A stretch of DNA of 64,000 nucleotides, from positions 29,698,001 to 29,762,000 of the forward strand of contig CM119372.1 in the NCBI GenBank assembly GCA_051294905.1, given 5' to 3'. Positions 8 to 63,149 of this stretch are shown piece by piece; positions within the stretch are counted from its first letter, which is position 1; each line of letters begins with the position of its first letter. The stretch comes from Botryllus schlosseri. Lineage: Eukaryota. Below the pieces are notes generated by a model. That model worked only from the letters and a program-made list of their open reading frames with translations. It was not told the origin of the DNA and searched no databases. Both the position numbers and the translations under genes were made by a program.

Positions 8-30
8 GGTACTTGTGAAATAAGTGCCCG
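8..30 (+). repeat. Left terminal inverted repeat (23 bp, starts GG)
   Basis: GGTACTTGTGAAATAAGTGCCCG, immediately after agagttg; imperfect inverted match to 38988-39010. Confidence 0.8.
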
Positions 31-1246: not shown

Positions 1247-1375
1247 ACCCCGCTATAAGGTTCCAGGACGGAAATGACGACATCTGTTATTTTGTGTTTT
1301 TACAGACGGTAGTCTAGGGCTAGTGCGCGATTATATTTAATTCATGACGGGGCGAGAACCACCACTATCCGTACC

Positions 1376-3892: not shown

Positions 3893-3978
3893 TGCACGCA
3901 TATGTACTCAAAGATTTTACTTTTATAAAATTTAATTTTTTCATAAGTCCACAGATATACTAACTAATTTATAATAAT

Positions 3979-7467: not shown

Positions 7468-7494
7468 ATTGTGAAATAATTACTGAATTATTGT

Positions 7495-7511
7495 AAAGGT
7501 AGAAGTGAGGG
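7495..7511 (+). promoter_or_regulatory. Polypurine tract (plus-strand primer) followed by LTR-like start TGTTAT at 7513
   Basis: aaaggtagaagtgaggg-t-TGTTATG, 28 bp after the last envelope-type ORF, the canonical PPT position. Confidence 0.65.
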
Positions 7512-12105: not shown

Positions 12106-12638
12106 CAGTGTTGGGATGACGAGTCAATTGGGAGAAATGTTTTGACTCGTGTCGCGAAGCAAAAATTTACGAGCCAATATCAGGTCATAGAATAAACGGT
12201 GTCAAATAGACCACTATAGCTTGTGTATACTCGAATTGTTTCCTCAGATCATAAATAAATTGACCGCAGATGAAACTATCACGACTTACGCTGTCATGGT
12301 AGTTATAAGGATTATTTTAGATAACAACATCTCTCTGTTTCATTAAAGGGCTCATTGCTTACGTTGTGCAGTGCGCACCCTTCTATATTTTGGTTGATAA
12401 TGTCTGACTGTAGCATTTATCTTTACAATTACTCACGAATTTTACTTGCGCGTGATTGATACAACATCTTTTGGCGCGTATAATTAACTATATGTTTGTT
12501 ATTTAATTCAATGTAGGTGCTAAAATTCAATTTGACTCGAGTCGATGCTTGACTCATGGCTTGACTTGGCCTGACTCGATTCAGGGTCAGCCATGACTCG
12601 AGATTACTGGTGACTCGAGGGAATTGATACCAACACTG
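12106..12638. mobile_element. hAT-type MITE (CAGTGTTGG...CCAACACTG, gactcga-rich) inserted in the giant element
   Basis: TIRs plus 8-bp TSD gtaggaag/gtaagaag; same family as 52959-53927. Confidence 0.85.
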
Positions 12639-15600: not shown

Positions 15601-17138
15601 AACAATCCACGGTAACGAGTATAAAATGGTGCAAATCATTAGTATGCGTAATGGGTCATGAATAATTTGCCGCAGGCAACAGCGATGTTGCAAATTGGAA
15701 AATTGACGTTTCCAAAAAGATATCATTTCTAATTATAAGTAAATAAGGTTACTAGCTTTACACCTGTTGTCAGGGTCTATCAAGTACTTGTGAATGTCGG
15801 CCCTAAACCTATAAAAGCTCTAATCAGCTAATTGAAATTGATAATAACTTGAGGCGCTATGATCTAATTTATTTAGTTTATTCTAGATGTTTTGTCGTCT
15901 ACTGGGGTCATTAACACCAGGCTGATATTGGTCTTACTTTTCCGAAACTATCGACTTATAGCTTGACCTACCGCTCGGATTTTGTGGGACACTGCTAACA
16001 CGGCATAGCGGGTGATGAGAGGTTTTTAGTTGTCCAATATTCATAACAAACGAGAAAGTGCGCATCTAGTCAGTAATTCCTCAATTTGCGCGCAGAACAA
16101 AAGGGATACGAACCCGAAAGTTCGGCCTAATTTATTGGAATTGTCACGTGAACACTAAGCAAGTAGGCACATCCGAGTCTATTTGCGATTGATGGTGCTA
16201 GTTTGAAATTGTCAACCCTAAAGAAACAGCGCGCGCCATGCGTTGAAGCTCTATTTCATATACTGACAGTTCATGATTTTTTGGGTATTAGGCCGTGCCT
16301 ACAATGGAAGTTGGCGACTTGGTGTTTTGATGAGATAGGAGGGATAAGGTTCAATGAAACTCTTTACTATATATAAAAGATTAAAAACAAATCACGCAGT
16401 AGTTAAAGGCCAGACATATGCTCCACGTAAGTCCTGGTCAGTCAGTCGGATATATAATGATCCATTACAACCTTAATAATACATTATTTCTACGGCCTGA
16501 TTAATAGAAGTAACAACATCAATGGGTTAATATTAAATCCGCGAAATAATTGTGTTTAATAGTGGATGTACAGCCACAAACTAGATTGCAGCATAGTAAA
16601 TTCTCACTCAAATTGAGGTATGAATGATTGATAACGGAATTTGATGACTTGTACTGCACGGTGCGATGTGTGGGCATCGGCTCCTGCGCAAATAGGTGTA
16701 ATTTTGTTAAAAATCAGGTATATGAACTATATGATGGTGTTCAGATTGTAATTGCTATAAACCAGACTATAATTACGGCACTCTATGACCATCAATTGGG
16801 CGGATGGCTGGGCTCTAAAGGACCCAGAATCATTTCATGAACTAGTATTGATCGTGGATGGTGACTTTGGAAAATTAAAAAACTTTTTTCGAAAAATTTT
16901 CGTGTAGTGAATGGTTTCTAGCCGTCAAATATCTCGAATGCACTATAAATATAGCAACAAGCATGTCGTCATTTAACATTACTATGCCACAGTTTATCAA
17001 CACTCGACAAAATAAATGGAGCCTTCCTGCTGGTTACTTGGAAAATTAATGACACATGGGCTTATTGCATTTCCACAGGCCTGGTATATATAAAGCCCAG
17101 TAACCACAATACATCTCCTTGTTGGTACAATTGTGGCC

Positions 17139-17708
17139 ATGACAAGTGCTGATGCCATGGAGCCCTCTGTTCTAGATGAACAGATTTGGACCGGAAGGTG
17201 GATTGTTGTTATAAAAAATATAGATGAAATTCTCAAATCATGCCAACCAACGCCTAAAGCAGAAGATAGTGATACCGAAAAGGACGAAAATGAGGGGAAT
17301 AAACAAGAAATTGACGAGGCAACCTTAGAAAGCTACTTCGAAAGGAACCCGTCGATCTGGGGAGATGATACAGACTCGGAATTAGATCTCACTGACTCGG
17401 ATGAAAGTTCGAGTACCTTGTCTGGCTCTGGACATGACTCTGGACATGATGTTATAGAATCCTATCTTTTCCCAGATCATGAATTGAGACCTTATCCGAA
17501 TTCCGAATCCAGTGATTTGACAGATTCGAATGAGAGTCTGAATACCATACCCGATACGGGTGGCGTCCCTGAGTGGGCTGATACTGACTCTGGAGTTAAT
17601 AGTAGCGATTCCGATCTATCCTCAGATCATGAACAGTTACGATCTCTTGACGAGGCAACTCTCAGGCGCCTTGATAGAATGTTTTGGCGCCCCTGGAATA
17701 ACGAGTAA
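17139..17708 (+). CDS. Cargo ORF, acidic Asp/Ser-rich protein of unknown function
   Basis: Intact ORF with TATATATAAAG ~50 bp upstream; DEATL motif occurs twice. Confidence 0.65.
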   Translation: MTSADAMEPSVLDEQIWTGRWIVVIKNIDEILKSCQPTPKAEDSDTEKDENEGNKQEIDEATLESYFERNPSIWGDDTDSELDLTDSDESSSTLSGSGHDSGHDVIESYLFPDHELRPYPNSESSDLTDSNESLNTIPDTGGVPEWADTDSGVNSSDSDLSSDHEQLRSLDEATLRRLDRMFWRPWNNE

Positions 17709-17956
17709 ATTTGGAAAACTATGCGATCAAAATGTACAAATTGATGTGATCAGCAAAATCTTAAATGTACATTAACAATGTTGCGACTGTTACAAGATAT
17801 GTTATGTTTTCTGTGCCTCATAGTGAAACAATTACATACTGTGGACGATTGTTTTTTTGTTTGTAACTATGGAATGATGACAGGTTAGTCAGCAGATTTT
17901 AAGAGAGAAAGAACAATTAGGCTGGTATGTGATACAAAATAAAAGTTTGGTTTAGT

Positions 17957-18325
17957 CAAGGCTGGCCAACCTTTTTTTAGCCTAAGGGCCACATTAAATT
18001 GAAGAAATACTGCGCAGGCCACTACCGCGCGAAGCGCTAAAAGCTTTTGAAATTTCTAGACCAAGTATATTGTAACTTGACTGTGTTGAGGATTGCCGTA
18101 TATCATTAGGCTGAGTTTACGCGGAGCGGGCTATGCGGCGCATGGCCATATCGATAACGTAAGCTGCGACCAACATGCGTCAGTCTTTCCGTGCTTAGGA
18201 TTCATAGTCAGCGATGTTACTGCGAATGCAAACGCAAGGTCACACATGTTCAACGACACTTTTTCCCTTAATTGCGAATATAGTTAGGCTCAATAATAAA
18301 AAAAAATAAAAAAAAAATAAAAAAT
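17957..18325. mobile_element. Truncated hAT/Charlie-like MITE fragment between cargo ORFs
   Basis: Starts caaggctggccaaccttttt...agggccaca, resembling the ends of 55619-57214; no matching right end found. Confidence 0.5.
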
Positions 18326-18592
18326 TGGCCGTTTTTCCAGGGTCACAAAATGGAAATTAATTAGCCGGCCCTGAGTTAAGACAATTAAGAATTGTTAGAT
18401 TGACAAGTGGCCAAAGATGACACCTTTCTTTACCTGGTAAAGGAATAATTAACCCCAAATAGGACTAATAAAGAGTTAGCAAAATTCAGTGTTGGGAATA
18501 TCATTACCGATATCTTACAATAATCTCGGCTGAAAGAAACATTATTATTTTTTGTTAAGGTGTAAAAATAACACGGTGTCTTAAATTAAAGA

Positions 18593-19111
18593 ATGTCTGC
18601 CTCAATAACTAAAGAACAATTATGGGAGCTATCAATTGAAAATATCGAACTATGGTATGAGGTACTTCGAGGGGTGAAAAAGACAGAGAGATTACAACGA
18701 TGGAATGATTTTTTCAAGGACATTAAGAATAACACTAGACATTATGCGGAGACCTTCTTCGAAGGAATGGGAGCAAGTAATGAAAAGGTTAAAGAGTGGC
18801 CATGGCGAAATGACTATCGGAGAAAACACGTAAAAAATCGAAAGGTAGCAAAAGTAAAACCATATTCACAAAGAAAACCTGCCTCAAACAAACAGAATAG
18901 AAGGGAAGAAATAGAGACCAGCTCCTTAACATCAACAAGTAGTCCTTTCTTGACGTCCTTACTGACGCCACCTTCAACGAGCCACGACTTGCCGCATAAT
19001 AGCAATGTTATGTCAGATGGGACGTATACATCGTTTGGTAGTATCATGTTTCGGCAACAGCCACCTACTGCTCAACTTCAACCTACAACAGCATATCATG
19101 ATGATGGTTAG
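18593..19111 (+). CDS. Cargo ORF, unknown (helical N-terminus, basic middle, Ser/Thr/Pro tail)
   Basis: 172-aa intact ATG ORF, co-oriented with the cluster. Confidence 0.6.
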   Translation: MSASITKEQLWELSIENIELWYEVLRGVKKTERLQRWNDFFKDIKNNTRHYAETFFEGMGASNEKVKEWPWRNDYRRKHVKNRKVAKVKPYSQRKPASNKQNRREEIETSSLTSTSSPFLTSLLTPPSTSHDLPHNSNVMSDGTYTSFGSIMFRQQPPTAQLQPTTAYHDDG

Positions 19112-19283
19112 ATAAATTCTAGCATATTGTTTGACTCACATGATTGGTGAGGTTGTATGAATAAAAGTTGAGCTAATGTATTTTCTCTGTTTTACATTGA
19201 TTTACAATATGAACCAATCTATTGAGAGTTGTATGAATAAAAAGGAAACATTCTGTATTCTAGAGTTATAAATAGTGAACTAA

Positions 19284-20156
19284 TTGAAGAAAGAAATGTG
19301 CTACGGGCTATTGTGCGACCCTAATACGGATCACAAGGTTGTCTACGAGTGGGCAATGCAGTTCGATCTTACGCAAAGGCAGCAGATAGTAATGGAAACC
19401 ATAAAAACTGCGCCGGTTCGGGATCGTTTGATGAGTCTCTTGTTCGGCACTTGTGAGCGGGACAATCCAAGGGTACAATATTGGCAACAATGTATGTACA
19501 CCAAGGAGGACTGGACAAAAATAGGAAAGCCTTTTCACCCGGTTGGGAGCGGTGAATGTAAACAATGTTACCTTATGAGACACGTAAAACCGTATTTCAA
19601 GAATACCGGGCAGATTTTGGAACTTATGACATTATGCCATGATTATTTAAAAGAAGCTTGTAGTATGCACAAAGGACTAGATCAAAACACCGAAAGAGAT
19701 AAAGGACATATAGTGCTTTATGTGTTATATCCAGAAGCGATAATAACCGCCATAGCTCTCCTGTTGCAACAATATCGGGGGGAAAAAAACATGCGAACAT
19801 TTTGTTTTACGAGATGTCGGATGGACGCAGAATTTGAGTTTCTATTTGGGGGAAATCTAGAACAATGGAGATTTACATACGGGTCCACGAGCACGTTTGG
19901 TTATTTGGGAGGCGTTTTTATTCTACCGATTGACCAAGTGTCGGAATCAACCTTTAAAAACTCGTTAAAAAAAGAGGGAGACAAACAAATAGTCAAAAAC
20001 ACCAATTCGGAAACTACCTTGATGTTTGATATTGAATCTTCAACCAGTAGAGACAGTAGGTTTCCAAACAGACCAGAGGCTCCGACCCGAATGGTAGCTT
20101 TACGGAGACCCAGTGTAGATGGATCCCATGCTGCCTCTAGTGGTAATATGGGCTGA
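19284..20156 (+). CDS. Cargo ORF, paralog family A (first ATG at 19296)
   Basis: NPRVQYWQQ and IVLYVLYPEAIITAIA match NPRLLYWKQ and LIMWIIFPEVQIYALA of 23296-23850. Confidence 0.7.
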   Translation: MKKEMCYGLLCDPNTDHKVVYEWAMQFDLTQRQQIVMETIKTAPVRDRLMSLLFGTCERDNPRVQYWQQCMYTKEDWTKIGKPFHPVGSGECKQCYLMRHVKPYFKNTGQILELMTLCHDYLKEACSMHKGLDQNTERDKGHIVLYVLYPEAIITAIALLLQQYRGEKNMRTFCFTRCRMDAEFEFLFGGNLEQWRFTYGSTSTFGYLGGVFILPIDQVSESTFKNSLKKEGDKQIVKNTNSETTLMFDIESSTSRDSRFPNRPEAPTRMVALRRPSVDGSHAASSGNMG

Positions 20157-21517
20157 TTCCAAAATAAGCTACTATTAGTTTGATCTAGAAATTGTATTGA
20201 TTGATCTGGACTTTTAGGGCTAGCCTAAAAGATAAGCCATGATAACTGAATTATTTAGGGCTGACCGGTGGTGGTTTAGGACAACTTATCAATTCGGCAC
20301 TACTACCAAAAGGTCAAACTTAACGGAAAAAGTATAGAAGCCGGTTATAGTGAAACTTGAGATTAGCAAAAGTAGAAACTATATACCTGTATTTTACGAT
20401 ATATATATACTCAGTTATTAATACAGTTTCCCTTTTTATTAAATGATTTCGATACATTGATCAATCGCTGGGATAATTCCCACCACCACCTCCCCTAGAA
20501 TAACATCCCGGGGACTATGAGAACTTGATACTTGAATGCAAGATCGACCTATCTTTATTGCCAAAACTTTTTAAATTCGAAAAGAACTTGTTATTGTAAA
20601 TTATGAAAAACTGCACGTTTTTTGTTTACTGTTATATTGAATGTTATGTACGTATTTTCGGCTGCAATTTTCGTGTTGAAATTTAGTCTGTAATGGCCCC
20701 AGACCACCTACCCTATCACAAATCACCTCGTGTTCATACTTAAATGTTATGCTAATCGAATTATATTTTATAAAGGCTGACGTGAGCGTAATCTTTTCTG
20801 TTTTGCCCACAATTGTCGCTCTGCCAAGATCTTTTTGTATGAGCCTCACACCAAATTGCTGCTAATTGAGTTATTGCTGTTATTACAATTTTATTTGATT
20901 ATGTAATAGTTTTGTAAAGTAGTCTTTTGAAAATTACTCACATTCCTGTCTCATGGCACCCTTCCTCTAATGGTCTCTATGAGACGAAGTTGTATATTAC
21001 TTGTATAATTGACCCTTGAATTAATTAGTTTCGCCGTCCAGAGAAACTCGTGTCAAAACATGTCTTATGGAAGGGAAGGCAGGGATGATGATTAATATTA
21101 CTTTTTAATAATGTTTTAATTGATATGTTGTATAACTTTTCCCACTAAAAAAAATCTTCAAAATGATGAAATATCGGAATTTGTTTATAAGTTATAAAAA
21201 TTAATAAAAATGACTGTCAAAACCAAAAGAGAAAAGCCATATTCTAAGAAAATCTTCAAAGGAAAAAATTATATAAATAAAAACCAGAAGAAAAATTTAC
21301 AAAATAATAAAATCCCTTGTGGGGGGGAGAGAATTATTGCCTAATAAGTACTGGGTGATTAATAAATGAATAAATGTCTTTATGAGTATGGAGGATACTT
21401 TATATAAGTGCTGAATGAAAATTAAAGGCATTATATGAATCTTGAAAATTGCTATACCGAGAAAATGGAAAATTGTACATATTTTTAAGGTATTAATAAA
21501 AAATAAAAATAAAAGGA

Positions 21518-22084
21518 ATGTTGGAATTTGATTATATTGAAGGTTACGATCCATCGAATTGGTGTCTTTTGTACGATGTATATGATGAATTGGATCTATT
21601 GAATCTGAAAGAATATAACAGCGAATATGAGAGATACCAGTTAAAAGAAAGAATATGGGAATTGCTTACGGACCGAGTTGATTGGGTTAAACAAACAGAC
21701 AATGGCCTAGCAGAGGCAGCCCTAGATGAGGAAATAACCCCAGAAATTTTTGATATATTCAATCGTGTGGTAGAAGAGATATTTGAAATAAGAGCGAAAG
21801 AATACACCTCTTTTGGAAGAAGAGTCATGTTGTATGAATTGATTAGAGGACTTGTGATGAAACTTACAAACACTAATATAACAAAGGATGTGTACCAGGA
21901 GAGAGAATATTGTAAAGATCCGCCACATATGGAACAATGGAATTGTCAAAATAATTTGGGAATAAAAGGCTATTCAAGTTCAATACATTGGCGAACAAAA
22001 AGGATAAGGCGAATAGAAATACATCCTTACCCCTACGAAAGGGAAAGTGTGAACATTGACTTTATAATACCGGAACAATCATGA
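21518..22084 (+). CDS. Cargo ORF, paralog family B
   Basis: RRVMLYELIRGLVMK...QNNLGIKGY matches RRVVYEVIRGVVMK...QKNLGVKGY of 25040-25753. Confidence 0.72.
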   Translation: MLEFDYIEGYDPSNWCLLYDVYDELDLLNLKEYNSEYERYQLKERIWELLTDRVDWVKQTDNGLAEAALDEEITPEIFDIFNRVVEEIFEIRAKEYTSFGRRVMLYELIRGLVMKLTNTNITKDVYQEREYCKDPPHMEQWNCQNNLGIKGYSSSIHWRTKRIRRIEIHPYPYERESVNIDFIIPEQS

Positions 22085-22181
22085 ACAATCATGAGTAATG
22101 ACAACGAATGTAAATAAGATTTTGACTTACAAAGGGCACATTTTCCAAAGGTATAGAGTAACAAAGTGGGTTATCTAATTC

Positions 22182-23231
22182 ATGAGTAAAATGAACCGAG
22201 TGGAACTACTAGTATTATGGCTGGGTATGTGTAATGCTATTTATCCGGAAACAATAGAACAAAAGAAGTGTACAACAGATGAAAGACGAACCATGTTATA
22301 CCCGGAATGCATGCAAGGAAGCAATTTGGTACTTTGGTGTGACCATTCGAGCTATACAAGAATTCCGGATCCTGATAAGATATACCTGGCAAAATCTTGT
22401 CGGAACACAGAAAAGATATTCATCAACGACAGCTGCCTACGGGAAATAACCAAAGAACAATTGGAAAAATATAAAGACATAGAGGTGTTACATTGTGGTT
22501 GGAATAAAATCCAAATACTACAAGGAGGTGCCTTCTGCAAAAATGAAAAACTCAGGGAAATAAACTTGATGCGAAACTACATCACACAAATTGAAAAGGA
22601 AAGCTTTTCAGGCTTACACCAACTCGATAGTTTGTATTTAAGCAGTAATTTACTGGCAGAGATAGAAGGATCGATATTTTCAAGCCTGGAAAACCTAAAA
22701 AGACTATATTTGGATAACAATGTCATAAAGAGACTAAAGAACGGAACATTCAATCATCTGCGTCGTTTAAGAATACTGGATTTATCAAGAAACGCAATAA
22801 ACGTTATAGAAGAAGGGGCGTTCAAAGGACTGAGGAAACTGGAAACTTTACATTTGGATGAAAATAGACTGGTTGAATTTGATATGACAATACTCGAATC
22901 TTTATGTAATTTAGAGAGATTAACGTTGTACTATAATAACTTACGATATTTTTCTCTGTCCTCCAACATCTCGTTCAAATATCTACATACTATTGATCTT
23001 AGTTATAATCATGTTCAATTTCTTAGTGATTCCCTATTGAAAAAATTACCAGATTTGGAGGTTTTAAAATTAAAAAGAAATAATAATGAAACGTCTACCA
23101 AAAGACCCTACGTGCGTAAACAATCGAGATTATATTATGCTGAGATGAAAAGTTTATCCCATTGTGTGACTATACATTCAAAAGGTGCATTTGCCTTTAT
23201 TGTTTGGCTAGTCACTATCGACCTGATGTAA
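22182..23231 (+). CDS. Secreted or membrane-anchored leucine-rich-repeat protein, intronless
   Basis: Signal peptide, Cys-containing LRR N-cap, about eight 24-aa typical LRRs (LxxLxLxxNxIxxI...F.gL), hydrophobic C-terminus. Confidence 0.88.
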   Translation: MSKMNRVELLVLWLGMCNAIYPETIEQKKCTTDERRTMLYPECMQGSNLVLWCDHSSYTRIPDPDKIYLAKSCRNTEKIFINDSCLREITKEQLEKYKDIEVLHCGWNKIQILQGGAFCKNEKLREINLMRNYITQIEKESFSGLHQLDSLYLSSNLLAEIEGSIFSSLENLKRLYLDNNVIKRLKNGTFNHLRRLRILDLSRNAINVIEEGAFKGLRKLETLHLDENRLVEFDMTILESLCNLERLTLYYNNLRYFSLSSNISFKYLHTIDLSYNHVQFLSDSLLKKLPDLEVLKLKRNNNETSTKRPYVRKQSRLYYAEMKSLSHCVTIHSKGAFAFIVWLVTIDLM

Positions 23232-23295
23232 TTTGAAGAAAATGTGGAATTTCGAGGTATTGATTTAGTATTGTCCTCTGTTCAACTAGTAATAG

Positions 23296-23850
23296 ATGTT
23301 TAATATATTAGAATACGGTAAAAAAATTACTAAAAGTATCAAAATGTGTTTGGGATTGCGTTGTGATGATCCAGATATACAACATACGACGTGGATACCC
23401 CAAAAAGAAACACTAATAGACAACGGATTAAAGTCGCTGAAGTTTCTGTTGACAACATATTCACTGACGGATCACTTATGTGATATAATGTACGACGAAT
23501 TAAATCCACGACTACTATATTGGAAACAAAAGTATGGTGTCACAACATGCAACAATCATTGGCTTGGGAAACATCTGGTTGAAAATGAGTGGGAAGAAAT
23601 TTATACAGGAAGCATTTACCCTGAAAAACCTATACAAATGGCTTTTGCAGAAATTTGCATAAACTGGGTAACAATTTTAAAGAGAGTAAATCCTGAAATA
23701 AGGGAATTTCTAAAAAAGGGAGATTCTGAAAGAGATCTCATAATGTGGATAATCTTTCCGGAAGTTCAAATTTATGCATTGGCAAAGACGCAGGAAATAT
23801 CATTAAAGGAAGCCGATTGTAGATTTATGACTTTGAAAGTACCTGCATGA
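23296..23850 (+). CDS. Cargo ORF, paralog family A
   Basis: Shares two motifs with 19284-20156. Confidence 0.7.
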   Translation: MFNILEYGKKITKSIKMCLGLRCDDPDIQHTTWIPQKETLIDNGLKSLKFLLTTYSLTDHLCDIMYDELNPRLLYWKQKYGVTTCNNHWLGKHLVENEWEEIYTGSIYPEKPIQMAFAEICINWVTILKRVNPEIREFLKKGDSERDLIMWIIFPEVQIYALAKTQEISLKEADCRFMTLKVPA

Positions 23851-23918
23851 AACTTAACTTTCCGATGTTTATGTATACAGAAACTACTTTTAAAAAGACA
23901 ATTAAGTTTTAAATAAAT

Positions 23919-24866
23919 ATGAAGACTAAAGAACCCAGAAAAAGAAGAAATCTATTCAATCTTGCTCGATGTGGTATAATATCAAGTGAACGAAAATGTA
24001 TAAAGTTTTTGCGATCACGGAAACTCCTTGTTCAAAAGGCAACATGTTTTAAATGTGGACAACAAATGAATGAAGAAAAATGCAAAAGAACTATGGATGG
24101 ATATAGATGGAGGTGTCTGGTTTCAAAGTGCCGGACTACCACGTCCATAAGGAAAAGATCGCTATTTGAAGGAAGCAAAATAAGACTCACCCAACTTGTA
24201 ATGATGATTTATCTTTGGACCATAGATGCATCTCAACGACAAATAGCTTTTGAAGCACACGTCAGCAAGAGAACAATGGTGAATTGGACCAAGAAACTTC
24301 GTAAGATATGCTCTGGGGAGATGGAAAGAAGAGGTACTCTAATAGGGGGAATCTCACAAGGTAAATCACATGTAATTCAAATTGATGAGACGTTTGTGGC
24401 CAAAAGAAAATTTAATCGTGGAAGAATAATACGCCAACGCTGGGTTTTGGCTGGAATAGATATGAAAACGCGAGAAATGTTTGCAGAATTGGTACCTGAA
24501 GAAGGGAGAAAAACCTCTGTATTATCAGAAATAATTATGAAACACGTAAAAGAGGGATCCACTATATGGACTGATTCATTTGCCAGTTACCGCAAGTTGG
24601 AAAGCCTGGGAATGAATTATAAACATTCAATAGTTAATCATGATCGCGAATTTGTCACCCCAGAAGGCATAAATACACAATTGATCGAGGTGTCTTGGAA
24701 TTTTTTCAAAGCTGCTATTAGAAGACTGAATGGGGTATCAAGATCACATATTCCCCATTACTTACAGGAGTGGCTCTGGAAAAGAAGGGTGGCCTTGGAG
24801 GAAAGGTTTCAACTATTTTTGGAGATAATGGCCCTTGATCCTAACTTTAGGTCATTGGAACATTAA
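23919..24866 (+). CDS. Merlin/IS1595 (ISXO2-like) DDE transposase 2
   Basis: CFKC...WRCLVSKC, IQIDETF, IWTDSFASY, HSIVNH...TQLIEVSW; own ATG; clearly diverged from transposase 1; no flanking TIRs seen. Confidence 0.92.
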   Translation: MKTKEPRKRRNLFNLARCGIISSERKCIKFLRSRKLLVQKATCFKCGQQMNEEKCKRTMDGYRWRCLVSKCRTTTSIRKRSLFEGSKIRLTQLVMMIYLWTIDASQRQIAFEAHVSKRTMVNWTKKLRKICSGEMERRGTLIGGISQGKSHVIQIDETFVAKRKFNRGRIIRQRWVLAGIDMKTREMFAELVPEEGRKTSVLSEIIMKHVKEGSTIWTDSFASYRKLESLGMNYKHSIVNHDREFVTPEGINTQLIEVSWNFFKAAIRRLNGVSRSHIPHYLQEWLWKRRVALEERFQLFLEIMALDPNFRSLEH

Positions 24867-25039
24867 AACAATGTTGTCACTATGACCAGTATCATTCGAT
24901 ATAAGTGATTTGAATCTTTTGGGAAACAATATAGGCGTAGATGAGTATACTAGTGTTATAATCCACATGTTTATAAAGCTATGAAATGTTTCTATTTAAG
25001 TACATATATGAGTGAGAATTATAGAATAAGCATATTATT

Positions 25040-25753
25040 TTGTTATTGTGTCACAGTGGGATAATGTATTTATATGAAATAAGGAGTCATAATGCGACTA
25101 TTTTTCAAAACCTACTGACACAACTGGATGAGGTTGAACTAACAAAAAAACCTAAATTTCTCAGCGTCCTGATGAATGTGCTCAAGTCTTTTTTTGAAAA
25201 GGAACAAAATTGGTATAAGAGACCGAAAGCATGTGATGGTGATGAATCTTGTGCTTGGACGTCAGAAGAAGACACAGACAAAGATTCAAGCCCAGATGAA
25301 TTATATGAAACAGACTCCGAAGACTCCCAAGATTCTGCCATAGTGAAAAATTCATCTCAACAACAACGTGTAATAGTATGGAAAGAGCAGACGATACAGC
25401 CTGATGAAAATTCATGGACTATAATTACGGAAACACTATTGGGAGTAATCAGAAGAATACCACCCTCAGGAATAAGGCGAGTAGTATATGAAGTCATACG
25501 AGGAGTAGTAATGAAATATACCAGAATTTGGATATGCATAACTAATCTTGATTATGTGGAAAGTGCCAACTCCAAATGGTCATGGCACAGCCAAAAGAAT
25601 TTGGGGGTAAAAGGATATTTGGCATTGGATTATGAAACAACTGCTATGGAAGGATATATATATATTTACTCAAAAAGAGTGAATAGAGAAACTGAGTCGA
25701 TGAGACAATATCTGGAAAATTTTTATCATCTTGCTCATAATCCACATTATTAA
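25040..25753 (+). CDS. Cargo ORF, paralog family B
   Basis: See 21518-22084; carries an extra acidic stretch. Confidence 0.7.
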   Translation: MLLCHSGIMYLYEIRSHNATIFQNLLTQLDEVELTKKPKFLSVLMNVLKSFFEKEQNWYKRPKACDGDESCAWTSEEDTDKDSSPDELYETDSEDSQDSAIVKNSSQQQRVIVWKEQTIQPDENSWTIITETLLGVIRRIPPSGIRRVVYEVIRGVVMKYTRIWICITNLDYVESANSKWSWHSQKNLGVKGYLALDYETTAMEGYIYIYSKRVNRETESMRQYLENFYHLAHNPHY

Positions 25754-26014
25754 TGAGTAGGTTAAAACGCCTAAGCTATGGAATTAATGGAATCAATGTT
25801 AATTGTGAAAGTGATAAAATCCGTTATTAATGGGATAAATTTAAGATTGTGGAAAATTGAAATTCGATACATTGAAACTATTGTTATTAACATTTGTTGT
25901 TGCATGAAATTTTAATGGTCTTTGTTTTTCATTTAAGAACAGAATGTTTATGTGTTAATACTAGAATATTGGATTGGTATGATTGTATTTAACCATTTTG
26001 ATTGGTATTACTGA

Positions 26015-27765
26015 TTGCCTGTTCTGTCAAAAGCCATTATACCAAGAAGCAATCAATTTGAAACTATGGGCATTCTGATGAAAAGAGATCGTGATCCTCC
26101 TGGACATAATTGCATTTATATTCCACCTGGAGATCACCGGGTTGAGCATTACAGACTTGCAACGTTCAAACATTTTCCGAAAGAAATTCCTGTGATACCG
26201 AGTTATCTAGCCGCTGCTGGTTTCTATTGGACAGGATTTCAAGATAGAGTAAGATGTTACTGCTGTGGCGTATCTGTGGAAAAATGGGTCACTGGAGATG
26301 ATGCCTTTGATGACAAGTGGCATAAATCTACTTGTGACATGGTGACCGGACAACATGGTTATAACTTGCCTATTTCAAATTGCTCAAGGAGGCTCCTTTT
26401 TGAACAAATTAGGTGCCACCTTAACTTTACTACAAGAAGTCAGCAAACTAATCGGAATGTGCAAAAACCGACTATTAAAGAGGAAAAATGTCCATTACCG
26501 CAAACCGTGTTTGCGAACATTTGTGACCAAGAACATGAGACTTCATTGCGATCAGCAAATTTGAGAAGTGAACTAGAGAGAAGAAGAACCTTTGACAAAT
26601 GGCCTTCCTATCCTGCTCCATATTTGGTTGGGGAATTGGCAAAACAGGGATTTTTCTACCTAGGAAACCTTGACAGAGCGCAATGTTTTTCATGCTCAGG
26701 AGTACTGAGAAATTGGGCACCCACTGATAATGTTCTTGAACAACATAAAAGACATTTTATGCAAAAAAATGCAAAATGGCAAATAACGAGTATGCGGGAA
26801 ACATGTCCTTGACAGACTCCGAGAGAAATCAGGCAGATAATGAACTTAAAATAAAAATTGAAAGGTTAACTGCTAATAGGGGAGAACCTCCGGATCCATC
26901 GCCAGAAGAACAACTCCAGTTGGTGGAAAGATTCCCTTGCCTTTACCCGATAAATTTGCATATGACATCGTTACAGCAAAGAATATCTTCGTTTAATGAA
27001 AAATGGCCCAGGATCCTCGCAACAGCGGAACAATTGGCTAAAGCGGGTATGTATTATCTAGGGGATTCGGACAGAGCGAAATGCTTTTACTGCAATGGAG
27101 GACTACAAAACTGGAACTACAATGATGAGCCGTGGACAGAGCATGCAAAGTGGTTTCCTGGTTGTGAATATGTTTTGCAAATGAAAGGTATTAATTTCGT
27201 TTTACGACTAAGAGATGAACATCCCAATCTCAATCGACCATCGATAAGAAATGCAATATGTCTTGATGCACCACGAGAAGAGATACGAAGGAACCATAAT
27301 CGACCAAGGTTATCTGGACAATACATAAACAGGATGCAATTGGAAGACATGGGATTCACGAGAGATCAAATAGAAGGAACTATAAATAGACAAATTAATG
27401 ATCATTTCTCTACTGGTGACATAATCCAAGATTTACTGGAGACAGTGGATACAATCTCCACGAGTCCAATAAAAACAACACAACAACAAGTTCCCAGTAT
27501 GTCTGAAAATAAGCATGAAGTGAACAACAACAAAGAAACGAAAGAGGCAGCAGTTGCAGAAACAATGTCGGTGGATGAAATCGCGCAAAGTTTAAAAGAA
27601 ATACAAGAGGTGGTGCTTTGCAAAAATTGCAAGAGAAACAAAAGTGAAATTACTTTCATACCTTGTGGGCATTTATGTAGTTGTGAAAGATGTGCAACAA
27701 ACTCTGAGCGATGCAACATTTGTGGTGAAACAATACTGGAAAAGATAAAGGTGTATAGAGCTTGA
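26015..27765 (+). pseudogene. IAP: Inhibitor of apoptosis (3 BIR + UBA-like + RING), intronless, frameshifted at A7 run 26763-26769
   Basis: BIR1 RLATF...GFYWTGFQDRVRCYCC, BIR2 GFFYLGNLDRAQCFSC...EQH, BIR3 GMYYLGDSDRAKCFYC...TEHAKWFPGC, LEDMGF, C-terminal RING CKNC...PCGHLCSCERC...CNIC. ORFs 26015-26812 and 26776-27765 join at the end of BIR2. Confidence 0.92.
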
Positions 27766-27911
27766 TGGAGCAGGCAGGACTATTATTTTGTGGCATGAAT
27801 GCTCTTGATGCATATGTATAATACATGATGTTACTAGTTACTTTTGCGCGTATGAATCAATTATTCGTAAAATTGAACATATGATTTTAACGTACTTTAT
27901 TCTGTATTAAG

Positions 27912-28367
27912 ATGACTAGAGTATTAGAGAATTGGGAAATTACGCTAGCCAAGAAACAAATTAATGAATACTATGATGAATTTGAACAGGAATACCATCA
28001 TCAAAATTTTGAGATATGGAAAAATACCCCAAAGGAAAAATTCAAACAATTAATAAAGAAATACCTTCATCATTGTTTTGCGAATGTGACAGAAAAACTT
28101 TTTGATAAGCTTTATGACGCACATAGCGATATTGCTCGCGTTTTTGTTACAAAAGATTTTGATCTGGCCCAATATACATGGTTTGGACTTGTTCTAAAAC
28201 TACATCCGGCTCATAAATATCTACCAGAAGAATTTCTGGATGAAAGATTACCACAGATGGAATTGCAAGATTCTACAACATTACTTCTAAATGCTCGAGA
28301 ATTTGAAACTGTTGCTATTCCAATTTTAGAAGACGCTTTTTCCAAAATTGTTATACTGCACGATTAA
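27912..28367 (+). CDS. Cargo ORF, paralog family C (copy 1)
   Basis: F..Y...W...H..I...A...W...LHP...E motif shared with 28373, 30066 and 30610; closest to 30066. Confidence 0.75.
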   Translation: MTRVLENWEITLAKKQINEYYDEFEQEYHHQNFEIWKNTPKEKFKQLIKKYLHHCFANVTEKLFDKLYDAHSDIARVFVTKDFDLAQYTWFGLVLKLHPAHKYLPEEFLDERLPQMELQDSTTLLLNAREFETVAIPILEDAFSKIVILHD

Positions 28368-28372
28368 GAGGA

Positions 28373-28768
28373 ATGTCTCGAAGAACCATAAGTAACCAGG
28401 AATTATTGCAAATGGGACATGAATCTGCAGTGTGCGACTTGAAATATTATTTTGACATGTTCTGTAAATACTATGAAGAAGATGTGGAAATTTCCGACAG
28501 ATGGCAAAGATGGGCTATGACAAGACCCAATGACATTGTCAGAATGCTGACGCTGTATGTTGACAAAGTTTACGGAAGTGCCTTATCTCCTCAAGGCAAG
28601 GCTCTGGGATATCACGACGCTATTAAAGAACATAATCGGATTGCAATTATTACATTGGGAAACTATAAGGAAGCCAAATTCCTTTGGTACCAACATATTG
28701 TTCGTATGCATCCCATGAAGGAAAACGTTTCAGAACAATGGATAAAAGAATGTTTGAAAGATGATTAA
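28373..28768 (+). CDS. Cargo ORF, paralog family C (copy 2)
   Basis: GNYKEAKFLWYQHIVRMHPMKE matches GNYEKAKLLWFHYMARMHPMEN of 30610. Confidence 0.75.
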   Translation: MSRRTISNQELLQMGHESAVCDLKYYFDMFCKYYEEDVEISDRWQRWAMTRPNDIVRMLTLYVDKVYGSALSPQGKALGYHDAIKEHNRIAIITLGNYKEAKFLWYQHIVRMHPMKENVSEQWIKECLKDD

Positions 28769-28887
28769 CTAAAATTATGTATGTATTGCCTCGAATTTTC
28801 CACTACATCAATGAGTCGCATAGAATATTTCGTATAAAAAACCCTAATTTATGTAATTATGTTGGCTTGCTGATTAAGACTTGATGA

Positions 28888-29415
28888 ATGTTTAATGGTG
28901 TTTGGGTTTTTTGTGTAAGGAATTTTAAGACATTAGGAATTTATTTGATTTTTAATCGTGACATGTTGGAAGTCAATTATGAAAAGTATGAATATGTGCC
29001 CAAAGACCCACAGAAGAAAGAATTGAACCGAAAAAAGTTCAGACCGTGTCCATATCCTACGATACCTGACAGCAGAGTTGCCTGGCTAAGGATGGGAATT
29101 GTACATGAACGAATAAAAGAAAGGATCGAGAACTTTCCGACTATGACAGCCAATGACATGGAATACGTATTGAAGGATTTTCTTGTTTGGCTATACCGGG
29201 ACCATGAGGTGGTGGAACAATTGGAATGCGCCAGGAAGGTACTGAAGCGCATTGTGGAAGAAAACTTTGGAGAAAGTCCTGCATACTATTTGTATGTATT
29301 TCTACGATATGTGTTGGCTATAGCTAATGTTGACGAAGATTGGAACATTACTAGCAGAACTATTGCCGGCTTTTCACGAAATATGTATGTTATGGATAAA
29401 CGACTGAATTGGTAA
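28888..29415 (+). CDS. Cargo ORF, unknown (start may be the ATG at 28942+)
   Basis: 175-aa intact co-oriented ORF between family C copy 2 and the E2 gene. Confidence 0.6.
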   Translation: MFNGVWVFCVRNFKTLGIYLIFNRDMLEVNYEKYEYVPKDPQKKELNRKKFRPCPYPTIPDSRVAWLRMGIVHERIKERIENFPTMTANDMEYVLKDFLVWLYRDHEVVEQLECARKVLKRIVEENFGESPAYYLYVFLRYVLAIANVDEDWNITSRTIAGFSRNMYVMDKRLNW

Positions 29416-29473
29416 TGTTTCCCTTTCTTTTTATGTGTGTAAGTCTTACCGAATAATATAGAATCTACACCGA

Positions 29474-29929
29474 ATGGCAAAGCATAGATTACATTTTGAA
29501 AGGCGAAAAATCACTCAAGAAATTCAAACGAACCCTTTAATTTTACAAGCGGGGCCATTGGACGAATCGGATATCTATGTTTGGCAAGCACTTTTGCGCG
29601 GACCATCAAAGACACCATATGAAAGGGGAACATTCCTTCTGAGAGTTGAATTTCCAACGGAATATCCATTCAAACCTCCGAAGATTAAATTCGAGACCAA
29701 AATTTTCCATCCGAATATAAGCCGTAAGGGTACCATATGCATTGACATTCTTGCAAATGAATGGTCACCTGCTTTAACGTTGGGAAAAGTATTGGTCTCG
29801 ATTTCGTCATTATTGGCTTCCCCTAACCCAGAAGATCCAATGGATGTTGAGAGTGCCAGACTGTATCGGGATGACTACGAAAGTTATCAAAAGAAGGCAA
29901 TAAACTGGACTGATATGTATGCTAAGTAA
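29474..29929 (+). CDS. UBC: Ubiquitin-conjugating enzyme E2 (UBE2D/E-like), intronless
   Basis: GPSKTPYERGTF...YPFKPPKIKFETKIFHPNISRKGTICIDIL...WSPALT...PNPEDP; HPN motif and active-site Cys intact. Confidence 0.95.
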   Translation: MAKHRLHFERRKITQEIQTNPLILQAGPLDESDIYVWQALLRGPSKTPYERGTFLLRVEFPTEYPFKPPKIKFETKIFHPNISRKGTICIDILANEWSPALTLGKVLVSISSLLASPNPEDPMDVESARLYRDDYESYQKKAINWTDMYAK

Positions 29930-30065
29930 ATTGCTATGTACCTAATACGCTTATCACAATTATTGAATATTTTGGGAGTGTAATTATACTTATATGTGTT
30001 AAAAATGTTAGTAAGGAAAGTTTCCGGTCCAATAATCAACGTAAAATTCTCTATATTAAGAAAAT

Positions 30066-30521
30066 ATGGGGGATAAAATTGTTAGAGTAAAGCATGAACT
30101 TGACGTTTTCTTCGATTCCTTTGAAAAAAGATACGAACACAAAGACTTCAGCAGATGGGCTGCAACAACACGGGATGAACTGGAAACATTTATGACACCT
30201 TACTTGAGGATTTGCAACCTAAGAATATCCGATAAACTGTTCGATGCGCTATATAAAAAGCATTTAGCCATCTCCCGCATGATATTGTTTGAAAATTACG
30301 AACATGCCAAGTTTTGCTGGTTTGTTTTCTGTGTTGGATTACATCCTGCCTCGGATGTCATACCTGAAGAATGGGTGTTGGAAAGAATGCCTTGTTCTGA
30401 TAGAACCGGATTTTGTATTTATACCACTGATAAACTCTTTAATGATACTTTTCCCTCTGATGTAAGAGCTGCTATACTGATACATAAAATGAAATGTAAT
30501 GGCTGTAATTATGAACAATGA
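30066..30521 (+). CDS. Cargo ORF, paralog family C (copy 3)
   Basis: Same length (151 aa) and motifs as 27912-28367. Confidence 0.75.
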   Translation: MGDKIVRVKHELDVFFDSFEKRYEHKDFSRWAATTRDELETFMTPYLRICNLRISDKLFDALYKKHLAISRMILFENYEHAKFCWFVFCVGLHPASDVIPEEWVLERMPCSDRTGFCIYTTDKLFNDTFPSDVRAAILIHKMKCNGCNYEQ

Positions 30522-30609
30522 GTGCATGGATGGTATATTGTATTTTTTGCCAGGTTGAATGTCTATTAATCATCTGTGACGTGTATGACAACTATAGACC
30601 CTTACCTGG

Positions 30610-31089
30610 ATGATTAATTTCTTTCAGAAAATTAAAAGTATGAATAACGCGGAAGTAAATGATAAAGGTGATGTTGATGTCACCAAACTAGTTGGATCTA
30701 ATGTGGCGGAACAAGACTTGATCTTTTATTTTTGGTTATTCAAAGAACGATATGAAGCAGGAATACCTCCCTCTCATAGATGGTACGAGTGGTCAAGGAC
30801 CCCACCCAAATATATCAAACTTGGATTGAAATGTTTTTTCAAACGAGTTAAAGATACCCTTTCTGATGAGAAGCCCCTTGTTATTGACTACCAAGGAATA
30901 CTAGAAAACCATAAAATGATAAGAAACATGGCATCTGGAAATTATGAAAAGGCTAAACTTTTGTGGTTCCACTATATGGCTAGAATGCATCCTATGGAAA
31001 ACTTGATCAAGGATGAATGGGTGAAGGAACAAGCTGAATCCACGGAACCCTTTTACCCCGAGGATACTGTAAATGTCCTAGTCCTATGA
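30610..31089 (+). CDS. Cargo ORF, paralog family C (copy 4)
   Basis: Paralog of 28373-28768. Confidence 0.75.
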   Translation: MINFFQKIKSMNNAEVNDKGDVDVTKLVGSNVAEQDLIFYFWLFKERYEAGIPPSHRWYEWSRTPPKYIKLGLKCFFKRVKDTLSDEKPLVIDYQGILENHKMIRNMASGNYEKAKLLWFHYMARMHPMENLIKDEWVKEQAESTEPFYPEDTVNVLVL

Positions 31090-31380
31090 ATATGGTTAAG
31101 TTCATGAATAATATTGATTTCATGTATTCCTATTGCATGTGTATAAAGCGTTATAACTGGCCTACGGGATATAGAACGGTCAGAACCTCTATTGCGTCTT
31201 GCATAGAGTCATTTTATTGTATTTTGTCGCACAGAGAATTGATTCCGTCACGTTCACAGCTTATTGAATGGTTTGGTTAACCTACATTCAGAAATGTTTT
31301 ACAGTTTGTACTGATTATTGCCAATCGGTTGACTGCGAATTATGTTTAATACTGAGGGGCCTCGTCATCCCTACAGTATG

Positions 31381-31389
31381 TATATAAGG
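31381..31389 (+). promoter_or_regulatory. Candidate TATA box of the genomic (LTR) promoter
   Basis: TATATAAGG in the non-coding interval ~840 bp upstream of the PBS; position is plausible but unproven. Confidence 0.35.
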
Positions 31390-32224
31390 CGTTATACACT
31401 GCTACGCCCTTACCTTTAAGCAGGACCCTAGGGACCTTATCACCCCCTAGTTTAACGAAAACAAAATGCCGAACTTTACGGTGAGAATCGTTATTGAAAA
31501 AAAATAATGAAAAACAATATAAAATTTATAAAATTTTCTTTTACATAAGCCAAACATGGAATGTTTGAAGTCCATTTTTATGGAAACACTAAAATTATAC
31601 TGATAACTGAAACTATACTAGAGAACTCATCAGCAGTGTTCAACTAAGCAACACCTTGTTAAGGGTAGTATCGAACAGGCTGATTAATAGGCCTATGGTA
31701 ATAATAATTGTACTGACGATTTGACGTCCTTAATGCTGATTGTGTTCTTGTATTATGTGATGAAATATTTTTGAAAAGATCAGCTTTTCGGCAGGACAGG
31801 CCGTCGCATGAATTATATGCGTAAACAAACCTTGGAGTATTGAAAATGTTTGTTAATTGTGTATGATGATGTATAGGTTAAACCATGCCTTGTGTTATAA
31901 TTGATGAATGATGTGTATGCCAATTTTAACCAAGCTTTGCATAGAGTTACCACATTTCCGTCTGCGCAATTAACTATTGGAGTATTTGGTTGTATTAAGG
32001 TTCCAGATTATCAGTAGATAAGGGTAGATTAAAATTCTGGACCCCAGGGTCATTGTCAACTTGAGAAGAAACAATCCTACAACTGTTGTTGCTCCAATCA
32101 CCATTTACAGACGTCGTCAAGATACTAAAGCAAACGAAAGGCAACGCTTTACTAGGAAGTAACCCGAACAAGTGTGGACTACTCGCATAACAATCGTTGT
32201 GGAGCTGCACTCTAAAAACAAAAT

Positions 32225-32242
32225 TGGTGGCCAGTACGGGGA
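32225..32242 (+). promoter_or_regulatory. Primer-binding site complementary to tRNA-Ile(AAU)
   Basis: TGGTGGCCAGTACGGGGA is the 18-nt complement of the 3' end (UCCCCGUACUGGCCACCA) of animal tRNA-Ile(AAU) as I recall it; it lies after ...AACA and ~310 bp before gag. Confidence 0.88.
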
Positions 32243-32271
32243 CCTTCCGGTGTTCAGACGTTGACCAATCG

Positions 32272-32541
32272 ATGCTTTCTAAGACGACCATCGTAAAACT
32301 TGTACTTGTCGTATCCTTGCTTTCATCGTCTGTATCTCTCCTGATAATATTGGCAGCAATTTATCTGCACGTATCACCTGGAGCGCTGTCTAATCTGTTG
32401 AACGTATTTTTGGGATCTAATAGCAGCGAATCCACTGCTTACGTCCAACCCACGAATACGCCGCAGAGATCTACAATATATTTTAACGTGTCTTCGCGTG
32501 ATCTACTACCTTCTGTCAATAGTACTTTATCCGGTCAATAG
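32272..32541 (+). CDS. Small leader ORF (89 aa) with signal-anchor/TM segment between PBS and gag
   Basis: ATG at 32272; hydrophobic IVKLVLVVSLLSSSVSLLIILAAIYL; NSS/NVS/NST sequons; stops 8 nt before the gag ATG. Confidence 0.5.
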   Translation: MLSKTTIVKLVLVVSLLSSSVSLLIILAAIYLHVSPGALSNLLNVFLGSNSSESTAYVQPTNTPQRSTIYFNVSSRDLLPSVNSTLSGQ

Positions 32542-32549
32542 GAAGGGCA

Positions 32550-38737: not shown

Positions 38738-38838
38738 AGCTGTTTTTGGCAGAGTGTAAATATGTGACATAATAAGGGTGAACGGACAAAATCCCTATAA
38801 TGGGAGCAAACGGACAAAACTGAAACGTCGTAACTAGA

Positions 38839-38861
38839 AAAAATGCTGAGTCAGCATTTTT
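38839..38861. promoter_or_regulatory. Palindromic Maf/AP-1 element (T-MARE) with A/T flanks; CRE TGACGTCA at 38961-38968
   Basis: aaaaaTGCTGAGTCAGCAttttt has 11-bp perfect arms and matches the T-MARE consensus TGCTGA(C/G)TCAGCA. Confidence 0.55.
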
Positions 38862-38987
38862 ATATCTCGTGTGGAAAAACGAGAGAACAAGAAGAAAAAA
38901 GGATAAGTGATAGAATAAACAAGGCGATTGAAATAAAGGATCATGGGGAATCATAATGAATGACGTCAAGTAGAGACACGAGTTAAG

Positions 38988-39010
38988 CGGGCATATACTG
39001 CACTAGTTCC
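38988..39010 (-). repeat. Right terminal inverted repeat (23 bp)
   Basis: CGGGCATATACTGCACTAGTTCC followed directly by aagagttg. Confidence 0.8.

Positions 39011-51900: not shown

Positions 51901-63149
<11,249 letters not shown>

Follow-up and report, generated by a model that had tools for sequence, protein, structure and literature searches.

The Caulimoviridae are plant pararetroviruses with an episomal circular DNA and a movement protein. In DIRS-type retroelements the integrase has been swapped for another enzyme, and Burro and Ogre belong to the LTR elements. The latter two are giants of 25 to over 30 kb, and Teratorn is described as a piggyBac transposon fused to an alloherpesvirus, for which excision to a circle has been proposed (PMC10175614, available part). 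Errantiviruses possess LTRs and an integrase, and their env has also been found in tunicates (PMC13524379, available part); Kuafuorterviruses are 5-6 kb long with LTRs, an integrase and an IADD/VADD/LADD motif (PMC11673190, available part). Merlin/IS1595 transposons are recognised by GG termini, 8- or 9-bp duplications and an ISXO2 DDE domain (PMC8101967, available part).

The DNA surveyed here (the window; 64,000 nucleotides of Botryllus schlosseri) contains an element of 39,003 bp (8..39010, + strand) with an 8-bp target duplication on both sides. Its ends are imperfect inverted repeats of about 23 bp (8..30, beginning GG, and 38988..39010, with CC at the end; both +), and no long direct repeat or LTR pair was found in the window. 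Target duplications of 8 or 9 bp were perfect in 20 of the 22 close copies, matched at 7 of 8 positions in one and were absent from one. Between the ends lie a Merlin transposase, env-like and mucin-like genes, gag, a PR-RT-RNaseH-Tpt1 region and a block of cargo genes, together with an internal region (7468..17138, no strand assigned) that has few ORFs and is variable and common to the copies. For the intron-rich host gene of the preliminary description, the window showed one helicase exon (62213-62458, minus strand; one match among 68 frames), located outside the element.

Two Merlin/ISXO2 DDE transposases in which the D-D-E motifs are present are encoded, the first at 263..1246 (+; dN/dS 0.09) and the second, c07, at 23919..24866 (+; dN/dS 0.15; 38% identical to the first). 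Both exceed the PF12762 cut-off, with the DET, TD and E motifs aligned. The terminal GG, the 8- or 9-bp duplications and the ISXO2 DDE domain are all in agreement with Merlin/IS1595; compared with that group as described in the available part of PMC8101967, however, the element is distinguished by its 39 kb, some 20 additional genes, two transposases and a strongly selected RT. The expectation for a Merlin transposon, namely DNA-only movement with the transposase as lone gene, fails, given that gag-pol, the primer-binding site (PBS) and the leader are under selection.

Gag with its zinc knuckle, the protease and the start of the RT occupy 32550..36974 (+), where the frames of the window copy depart from the usual gag / pro-pol split, followed by the RT, RNase H and a Tpt1-like domain at 36938..38737 (+; RT-RH dN/dS 0.05). 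No integrase was detected in the pols scanned, Tpt1 being the end of pol in all four subfamily pols. The element resembles the DIRS type in that its integrase is replaced, and differs in that no tyrosine recombinase was found in it. The PBS (32225..32242, +) is complementary at 18 of 18 positions to host tRNA-Ile(AAT) plus CCA and has exact copies at 43 places; no such tRNA-Ile site turned up in subfamilies B, C, E and F or in lineage D. Located 225 nt upstream is a 24-nt spliced-leader copy identical to the host leader (31976..31999, +), which would mark the 5' end of the genomic RNA. The non-coding stretch before it (31090..31975, +), on which single-cell reads pile up, is U3-like and may hold the promoter and the RNA 3' end. 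The template-switch adaptor stands immediately before 31976 in 665 reads with dissimilar tails. Across the family the leader is exact at 21 of 23 sites and identical at 23 of 24 positions in the other two, reaching a subfamily at 63% in the RT, and the flanks of the copies differ. For many copies an SL RNA gene was rejected as the identity of this sequence, the GT 3' of the leader often being missing.

When the RT profile was compared with the PDB, the best score was obtained for 8r0s (148 bits), followed by Ty3 (128) and foamy virus (101). The structure 8r0s is presumably the RT of cauliflower mosaic virus, and the likeness to Caulimoviridae on this point is one of scores only. Further likenesses are the PR-RT-RNase H without integrase, the tRNA primer site, a putative circle and, in lineage D, permuted, ragged insertions. 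The differences from Caulimoviridae comprise the animal host, the env-like glycoproteins, the Tpt1 domain, a size of 15-39 kb and probable active integration by a DDE transposase, and no Pfam movement-protein family was found in the element. Gag, PR-RT-RH and a PBS are shared with Ty3/gypsy errantiviruses (PMC13524379, available part), and the env-like glycoprotein, for which no profile match to an F- or gB-type envelope was found, may correspond to their env; unlike these and retroviruses, the element has neither an integrase nor two LTRs. The Kuafuorterviruses also have gag, PR-RT-RH and a PBS, whereas the element has a YIDD motif in the RT and lacks integrase and LTR (PMC11673190, available part). 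Burro and Ogre compare in giant size but not in type, the element not being of the LTR kind. In Teratorn, and probably in the present element, a cut-and-paste transposase with its ends gives a non-integrating virus a chromosomal phase, and a circular excision product has been proposed for both; here, however, the virus part uses reverse transcription and the transposase comes from Merlin, which is unmentioned in the available part of PMC10175614. Scans of metagenome and viral contigs yielded a single relative at 51%, its contig of 4.7 kb showing only gag-pro-RT, and no description of the architecture was found in the literature outside subscription journals, Repbase and supplements.

The env-like glycoprotein (1376..3892, +) shows, read by eye, a signal peptide, a basic cleavage site, a hydrophobic peptide, a helical region and a TM anchor, and may have fusion activity, judging by these sequence features; Pfam, PHROG and PDB searches gave no match. 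The window copy alone has a stop at 2738-2740; a programmed stop within env was rejected, since the frame continues in all 12 of the other copies. The gene that follows (3979..7467, +) encodes a mucin-like membrane glycoprotein whose N-terminus is weakly related to that of Env.

Between 17139 and 31089 the plus strand has 16 ORFs that open with ATG and encode 131-349 aa. Two of them (26066-26812 and 26776-27765) are a single IAP gene, split in the window copy; 15 genes rather than 16 are recognised because 21 of 25 close IAP matches form one stop-free frame of 555-583 aa. The 15 co-oriented genes of the preliminary description were therefore borne out, as were the short spacers it quoted (5, 64 and 58 bp, within its 5-70 bp), the full range of the 14 spacers being 5 to 1361 bp. 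Its AT-richness holds but is modest: at 38% GC the cargo ORFs lie below the right flank (41.5%) and gag-pol (47%). Of the 13 other close copies, 12 contain all 16 ORF regions. The dN/dS comparison among copies that it had suggested gave 0.09-0.29 for all 16 ORFs across 13 copies, compared with 0.76-2.22 in shifted frames, indicating purifying selection on every one; neither neutral evolution nor a lack of linkage at other loci, the outcomes it had named as contrary, was found. The 15 cargo genes form an accessory block, maintained by selection, of an element that is 39 kb long and present in many copies.

Pfam identifies four cargo genes, namely an LRR protein, an IAP, a ubiquitin-conjugating enzyme (UBC, E2) and the transposase c07. 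The view that the recognisable genes are host-interaction factors fails for c07. All genes are on the plus strand, commencing with c01, an acidic low-complexity protein (17139..17708; dN/dS 0.28), and c02, which is basic/low-complexity (18593..19111; 0.29). The family of c03 (19296..20156; 0.26) and c06 (23296..23850; 0.15) matches PWP3A-B_C weakly, below the cut-off, which a paralogue in a distant subfamily exceeds; its profile found one outside protein, 88% identical, and no match in the PDB. The leucine-rich-repeat protein c05 (22182..23231; 0.17) has hydrophobic ends and is likely secreted or membrane-anchored. A second family consists of c04 (21518..22084; 0.27) and c08 (25064..25753), the latter with two alleles among copies (~55% and 96% identity). 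For c04 a four-helix bundle is predicted, for which a clear fold match was not found; a Bcl-2 assignment (Pfam E 0.014) is unsupported by the structure model (pLDDT 65, best Z 6.2). The IAP (26066..27765) carries three BIR domains and a RING, its frame being broken near 26765-26776 in the window copy. The helical c11 (27912..28367; 0.13), where a leader-like TATTAAG abuts the ATG, forms a family with c12 (28373..28768; 0.15), c15 (30066..30521; 0.11) and c16 (30610..31089; 0.25). For its model (pLDDT 78) Foldseek gave no hit at E<=0.001 (best Z 6.6), and the ESM Atlas returned nothing. Profile comparisons of the cargo families with each other and with c13 (28888..29415; 0.20) gave no match, nor did PHROGs for 14 proteins.

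The E2, c14 (29474..29929; 0.09), is about 80% identical to a host tandem array that is itself intronless. The IAP lacks the introns of a host IAP, its frame running uninterrupted over the host exon junctions, and on this comparison passage through RNA is the best explanation for the intronless cargo. TTAAG occurs within 40 nt upstream of 7 of the 15 cargo starts versus 36 of 762 intergenic windows; these conserved sites are candidates for the acceptors near start codons at which genes of a leader-resolved operon would receive the leader. Read depth over the cargo is low (0-4); a single leader-to-c04 RNA joint was observed, whose shorter arm has only 21 letters, rich in A, and whose site is unconserved in other copies.

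What is observed comprises the anatomy, the ends with their target duplications, the selection on every cargo gene, the copy of the leader, the primer site and the mosaic make-up of the copies. On this basis the 39-kb integrase-less element with Merlin-type ends probably follows a pararetrovirus-like cycle, passing through an RNA headed by the leader and a circular DNA, and probably owes its insertion to its own transposase. The transposase would excise a copy whose ends are joined into a circle, from which an RNA longer than the unit would begin at the leader or receive it by trans-splicing. This RNA would read leader-PBS-gag-pol-[joined ends]-transposase-env-mucin-cargo and stop just short of the leader. 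Reverse transcription would be primed by tRNA-Ile. The short first DNA would transfer to the 3' end of the RNA, and genomes packaged together would be reshuffled by template switching. The DNA circle would then integrate at the joined ends, giving the 8-bp duplication. The cargo, at the RNA 3' end, would be expressed through subgenomic mRNAs, probably derived from long transcripts processed by host leader trans-splicing; such cutting is proposed as the reason for the short spacers. Expression from a DNA phase, as suggested earlier, is plausible. As for roles, the IAP and E2 may block cell death via ubiquitination, the LRR protein may act at the cell surface, and the three duplicated helical families are likely binders of host proteins. 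Several points count against the cycle: an RNA template of 39 kb would stand at the top of the known size range, cargo reads are scarce, the one leader-to-c04 joint is short, the circle junction sought below was not seen, the tRNA-Ile site was found in none of the other subfamilies named above, and the env-like protein has no database match.

Linkage disequilibrium (r2, 19 copies) was 0.185 at the joined ends, 0.105 at the leader and 0.184 within gag-pol, with a half-distance of about 2 kb. It was higher at the joined ends than at the leader in 25 of 25 subsamples, but only a little greater than between distant core pairs (0.165, exceeded in 20 of 25), and it is low within the 5' cargo too, so that a co-inherited core with shuffled cargo fits as well as strict adjacency of the ends. 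Selection could produce such a core-versus-cargo pattern in a giant Merlin DNA transposon moved whole by cut-and-paste, in which gag-pol-env would be a captured passenger reverse-transcribing short RNAs only and the cargo would be shuffled by chromosomal DNA recombination. The Merlin character of the ends, the duplications and the transposase is plain, and the end-to-end junction of a circle had no match in the assembly and was not seen among the 15 joints listed from four contig sets, 271 more lying beyond the listing; a joint at 882-8928 was rejected as a circle, being an empty site. This explanation is nonetheless unlikely. Cargo identity among 19 copies is 98.2% for the closest pair with a median of 90%, yet the frames are open, and the RT, PBS and leader are strongly selected. 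Subfamily B is moreover circularly permuted (cargo-gag-pol-transposase-env-end), with 8-bp duplications in two of three copies. In a tree in which no caulimovirid was included, the subfamilies with a transposase group as a single clade, outside which lies the transposase-less lineage D. In this deeper relative, three of four copies are ordered pol-env-cargo-leader-gag with differing break points, and the insertions are ragged and permuted. No transposase is detectable in lineage D, a 233-aa ORF having no transposase-profile match and nothing in the ESM Atlas. Inverted pieces that are 100% identical occur inside D copies and could be assembly or repair products.

The linkage and permutation could also be accounted for without free circles if unit-length RNA were transcribed from chromosomal copies arranged in tandem or nested in one another, and if a linear cDNA or a concatemer were then cut at the inverted repeats for insertion. 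Some copies are indeed adjacent or nested, but the assembly contains no head-to-tail junction and nearly all inspected copies are single, each with its own duplication, making this route improbable. Least probable, and largely refuted, is an origin of the cluster in a large DNA virus or Polinton, a piece of which would have been inserted in the element, or in a group of host genes retained because they benefit the host. IAP and E2 genes are present in further repeated elements of the host genome, which would suit such an origin; against it, no DNA polymerase, capsid or packaging gene was found by Pfam among the 22 element ORFs, structure searches found no viral fold match for the cargo proteins, 59 of 59 c11-family matches lie, by coordinates, at loci of the element family, and homologues of c11, c12 and c04 also occur in lineage D. 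The likeness to a large-DNA-virus accessory region in the preliminary description was accordingly sound as to a virus-like, element-linked block under purifying selection and mistaken as to the carrier; its choice between virus and transposon cargo was a false one, the carrier being an element that is reverse-transcribing and yet has the ends of a transposon.

A broader history is offered tentatively, its chances being a little short of even: a new family of enveloped, integrase-less animal reverse-transcribing viruses may have had a pararetrovirus-like form of about 15 kb, and one of its branches may have acquired a Merlin transposase together with the transposon ends, turned into a true integrating provirus, grown to a 39-kb RNA genome headed by the host spliced leader and built its 15-gene accessory operon by retro-capture and duplication.

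If the proposed cycle is true, the element would represent a new kind of animal reverse-transcribing virus, and pararetrovirus-like replication would reach the chordates. Its reverse-transcribed genome of about 39 kb would lie at the known size limit, with an accessory set akin to that of large DNA viruses. Loss and replacement of the integrase would be visible in one genome, where transposase-less and transposase-bearing forms of one RT lineage stand side by side, which would bear on the relation between pararetroviruses and integrating retroelements. The cargo itself supplies three helical protein families without assigned function, and points to apoptosis, ubiquitin and the cell surface as host pathways under pressure.

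Sixteen plus-strand ORFs of 131-349 aa (c01-c16) were recognized by an ORF scan of the window between 17139 and 31089. Two are halves of one IAP gene, broken in the window copy and open over 555-583 aa in 21 of 25 close matches, so the block holds 15 genes, and the co-oriented cluster of 15 genes claimed in the preliminary description is borne out. Intergenic spacers range from 5 to 1361 bp, and GC content is 38% compared with 41.5% in the flank. Pfam assignments were obtained for an LRR protein, a Merlin/ISXO2 transposase, the IAP and an E2 enzyme. Eight of the 11 genes without a Pfam name fall into the paralogue families c11/c12/c15/c16, c03/c06 and c04/c08; c01, c02 and c13 are singletons with no paralogue family within the cargo. 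The structures predicted for c11 and c04 are helical bundles, with a convincing match for neither.

Across the cargo, pairwise dN/dS runs from 0.09 to 0.29; shifted frames give 0.76-2.22, and four non-coding controls, which align poorly, give 0.49-1.37. The pairs are not independent. Stop codons occur in 0-2 copies per ORF. All 16 ORF regions were found in 12 of the 13 other close copies (host loci of the same family) among those listed, partly deleted in some; the block is absent from the thirteenth. Judged by eye from coordinates, all 59 matches to the c11 family (65 candidates) and all 26 E2 matches with 87% identity or more sit at family loci. Given these dN/dS values and the positions of the c11-family matches, the ORFs are neither neutral nor unlinked to the element. 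Cargo order is conserved in the sister subfamily at 53-76% identity, and the remaining subfamilies carry smaller, partly different sets; the cargo is thus accessory and variable.

The interpretation in the preliminary description was partly supported: the virus-like accessory character of the cargo, under selection and linked to the element, stood, but a large DNA virus as its carrier did not, the carrier being a reverse-transcribing element with Merlin ends. Comparison with other loci placed the element at 8-39010, with imperfect inverted terminal repeats ending in GG and a flanking 8-bp duplication. The gene order is transposase, env-like, mucin-like, some 10 kb poor in ORFs, cargo, gag and PR-RT-RNase H-Tpt1. 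A Pfam search found no integrase in the element, and there is no long direct repeat within the window. Among 22 close copies whose two ends could be read, the target duplication is a perfect 8 bp in 19, 9 bp in one, 7/8 in one and missing in one. GG termini with 8-9-bp duplications are the Merlin signature (PMC8101967), and the element's own ends match it. An RT search, with 121 of 1210 candidates scored, gave at least 53 near-full matches at ≥83% identity and at least 32 at ≥94%. An unclassified reverse-transcribing element that has Merlin ends and lacks integrase thus carries the cargo block as its accessory region; the freely accessible literature searched gave no description of this combination.

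Several further features were noted. Derivatives of 10-14 kb without RT (L099-L100 and other end pairs) retain both ends, leader and primer site, as elements mobilized in trans would. One copy (L013, G000:C4:10618955) has a 24-kb internal deletion stopping 4 nt short of the primer site, and at L081:882-8928 contigs of run X1 connect both flanks, which suggests an empty allele, although the flank is itself a repeat. A small hydrophobic ORF (32272-32541) lies between primer site and gag, also in the sister subfamily (L186). Elsewhere the window holds a 785-bp inverted repeat pair (52104-54736), an ORF with a weak GIY-YIG match (59663-60373) and a minus-strand helicase exon (62213-62458).

In a quick IQ-TREE analysis (58 RT-RH rows, none from a caulimovirid or retrovirus; SH-aLRT only, midpoint root), eight host rows and eight outside proteins form one long-stemmed group (SH-aLRT 99). 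Within it the seven transposase-bearing rows cluster (100), and the more distant lineage D falls outside them. Integrase domains were found in 20 of the 22 rows scanned among the other 41 and in none of the group's outside relatives, several of which end in Tpt1; in one, P0010, an Exo_endo_phos domain is fused behind Tpt1. PDB profile comparison gave 8r0s a higher score than Ty3 or foamy virus and confirmed the Tpt1 domain.

The primer site, 18 nt at 32225-32242, is fully complementary to the end of the host tRNA-Ile(AAT), and its sequence has 43 exact copies. Differing TGG-starting, AT-rich candidate primer sites occur in other subfamilies (L064, L097, L186). Upstream, the 24-mer at 31976-31999, presumably an ascidian spliced leader, serves many host mRNAs as their capped leader: in 665 reads the template-switch adaptor lies immediately 5' of it, followed by sequence unlike the element. 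Of 236 exact genome copies, the first 30 include 19 with family gag downstream and two more of lineage D. At 21 of 23 family sites the leader is exact, and at the other two it matches 23/24; the letters flanking it on both sides vary, and GT is often missing after it. On this sequence pattern, the leader copy is read as a putative copied 5' end of genomic RNA. Single-cell reads form a one-strand pile at 31659-32275 (depth 198, against ≤4 in other bins) that, depending on the library chemistry, may fit a poly(A) site. Partial tandem repeats of the leader 3' end directly follow it at L064:6950, L091:5331 and L109, like relics of repeated copying; L127 and L128, with GTAAG directly 3' of the leader, are candidate true SL RNA genes.

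Reads over the cargo are scarce (depth 0-4, with 3-6% of two runs read). TTAAG, the leader end, lies within 40 nt upstream of 7 of 15 cargo starts; of 762 overlapping intergenic windows, 36 contain it (p 2e-6). At c02, c07, c11, c12, c13 and c15 the AG of this motif is conserved in 14-19 of the 17-19 copies, and at c11 a 9-nt leader-end match lies upstream in the window's subfamily and lineage D alike. These sites may serve as acceptors, may be remnants of captured mRNAs that began with the leader, or may be both; one weak RNA joint links the leader to c04. A host IAP has exons bounded by GT and AG ends, and the element IAP is continuous through at least two host exon junctions, those directly readable. 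The element E2 shows about 80% identity to a tandem array of intronless host genes and has only the coding region in common with it, so transfer may have run either way. At G000:C1:34.12-34.49 Mb (L180-L183) such an array comprises about 20 E2 genes without introns, whose identity to the element's gene is 50-81%, and at L184 (G000:C2:36.47 Mb) a repeated E2 (57% identity) adjoins ORFs of Polinton-like look by eye. Dozens of loci (e.g. G000:C4:10590980-10593669) have IAP genes without introns as inverted pairs whose members are 2-15 kb apart; the pairs probably belong to the ends of a different mobile element.

Linkage disequilibrium across 19 copies (2209 informative sites) falls from 0.34 below 250 bp to 0.17 at 1-2 kb and 0.12 at 8-24 kb, and between the two ends is back up to 0.17. 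By blocks it is 0.185 across the joined ends compared with 0.105 across the leader, an order kept in 25/25 subsamples. Among the cut points scanned, 32000 gave the best linear order, with rho -0.41; the DNA order gave -0.04, and cuts at 24-26 kb were nearly equal to the best. Co-selection of the core is a possible source of this pattern, because distant core pairs reach 0.165. Gene order bears on the same question. Subfamily B has the element's right end and the order cargo-gag-pol-transposase-env-mucin; two of its three copies carry 8-bp duplications, and the left end of the third is beyond the DNA examined. Lineage D, with RT identity of 48-49% and a unit of about 15 kb, retains gag, pol-Tpt1, env, c04, c11, c12 and leader, with no transposase detected; its four copies break at different places within gag or pol, three of them with the order pol-env-cargo-leader-gag. 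Its pol bears a G-patch domain, and L169 has a 233-aa ORF (4946-5647), not matched by the transposase profile, in the transposase position of other subfamilies and a basic 236-aa ORF (906-1616). No circle junction was found directly in the assembly or among 15 joints from four contig sets. A cycle of circle and RNA is nonetheless the best-supported mechanism and, on indirect evidence, probably the right one: in the RNA phase the leader would form the 5' end of the genomic RNA, with tRNA-Ile at the primer site, and in the DNA phase the element would become a circle through its joined ends.
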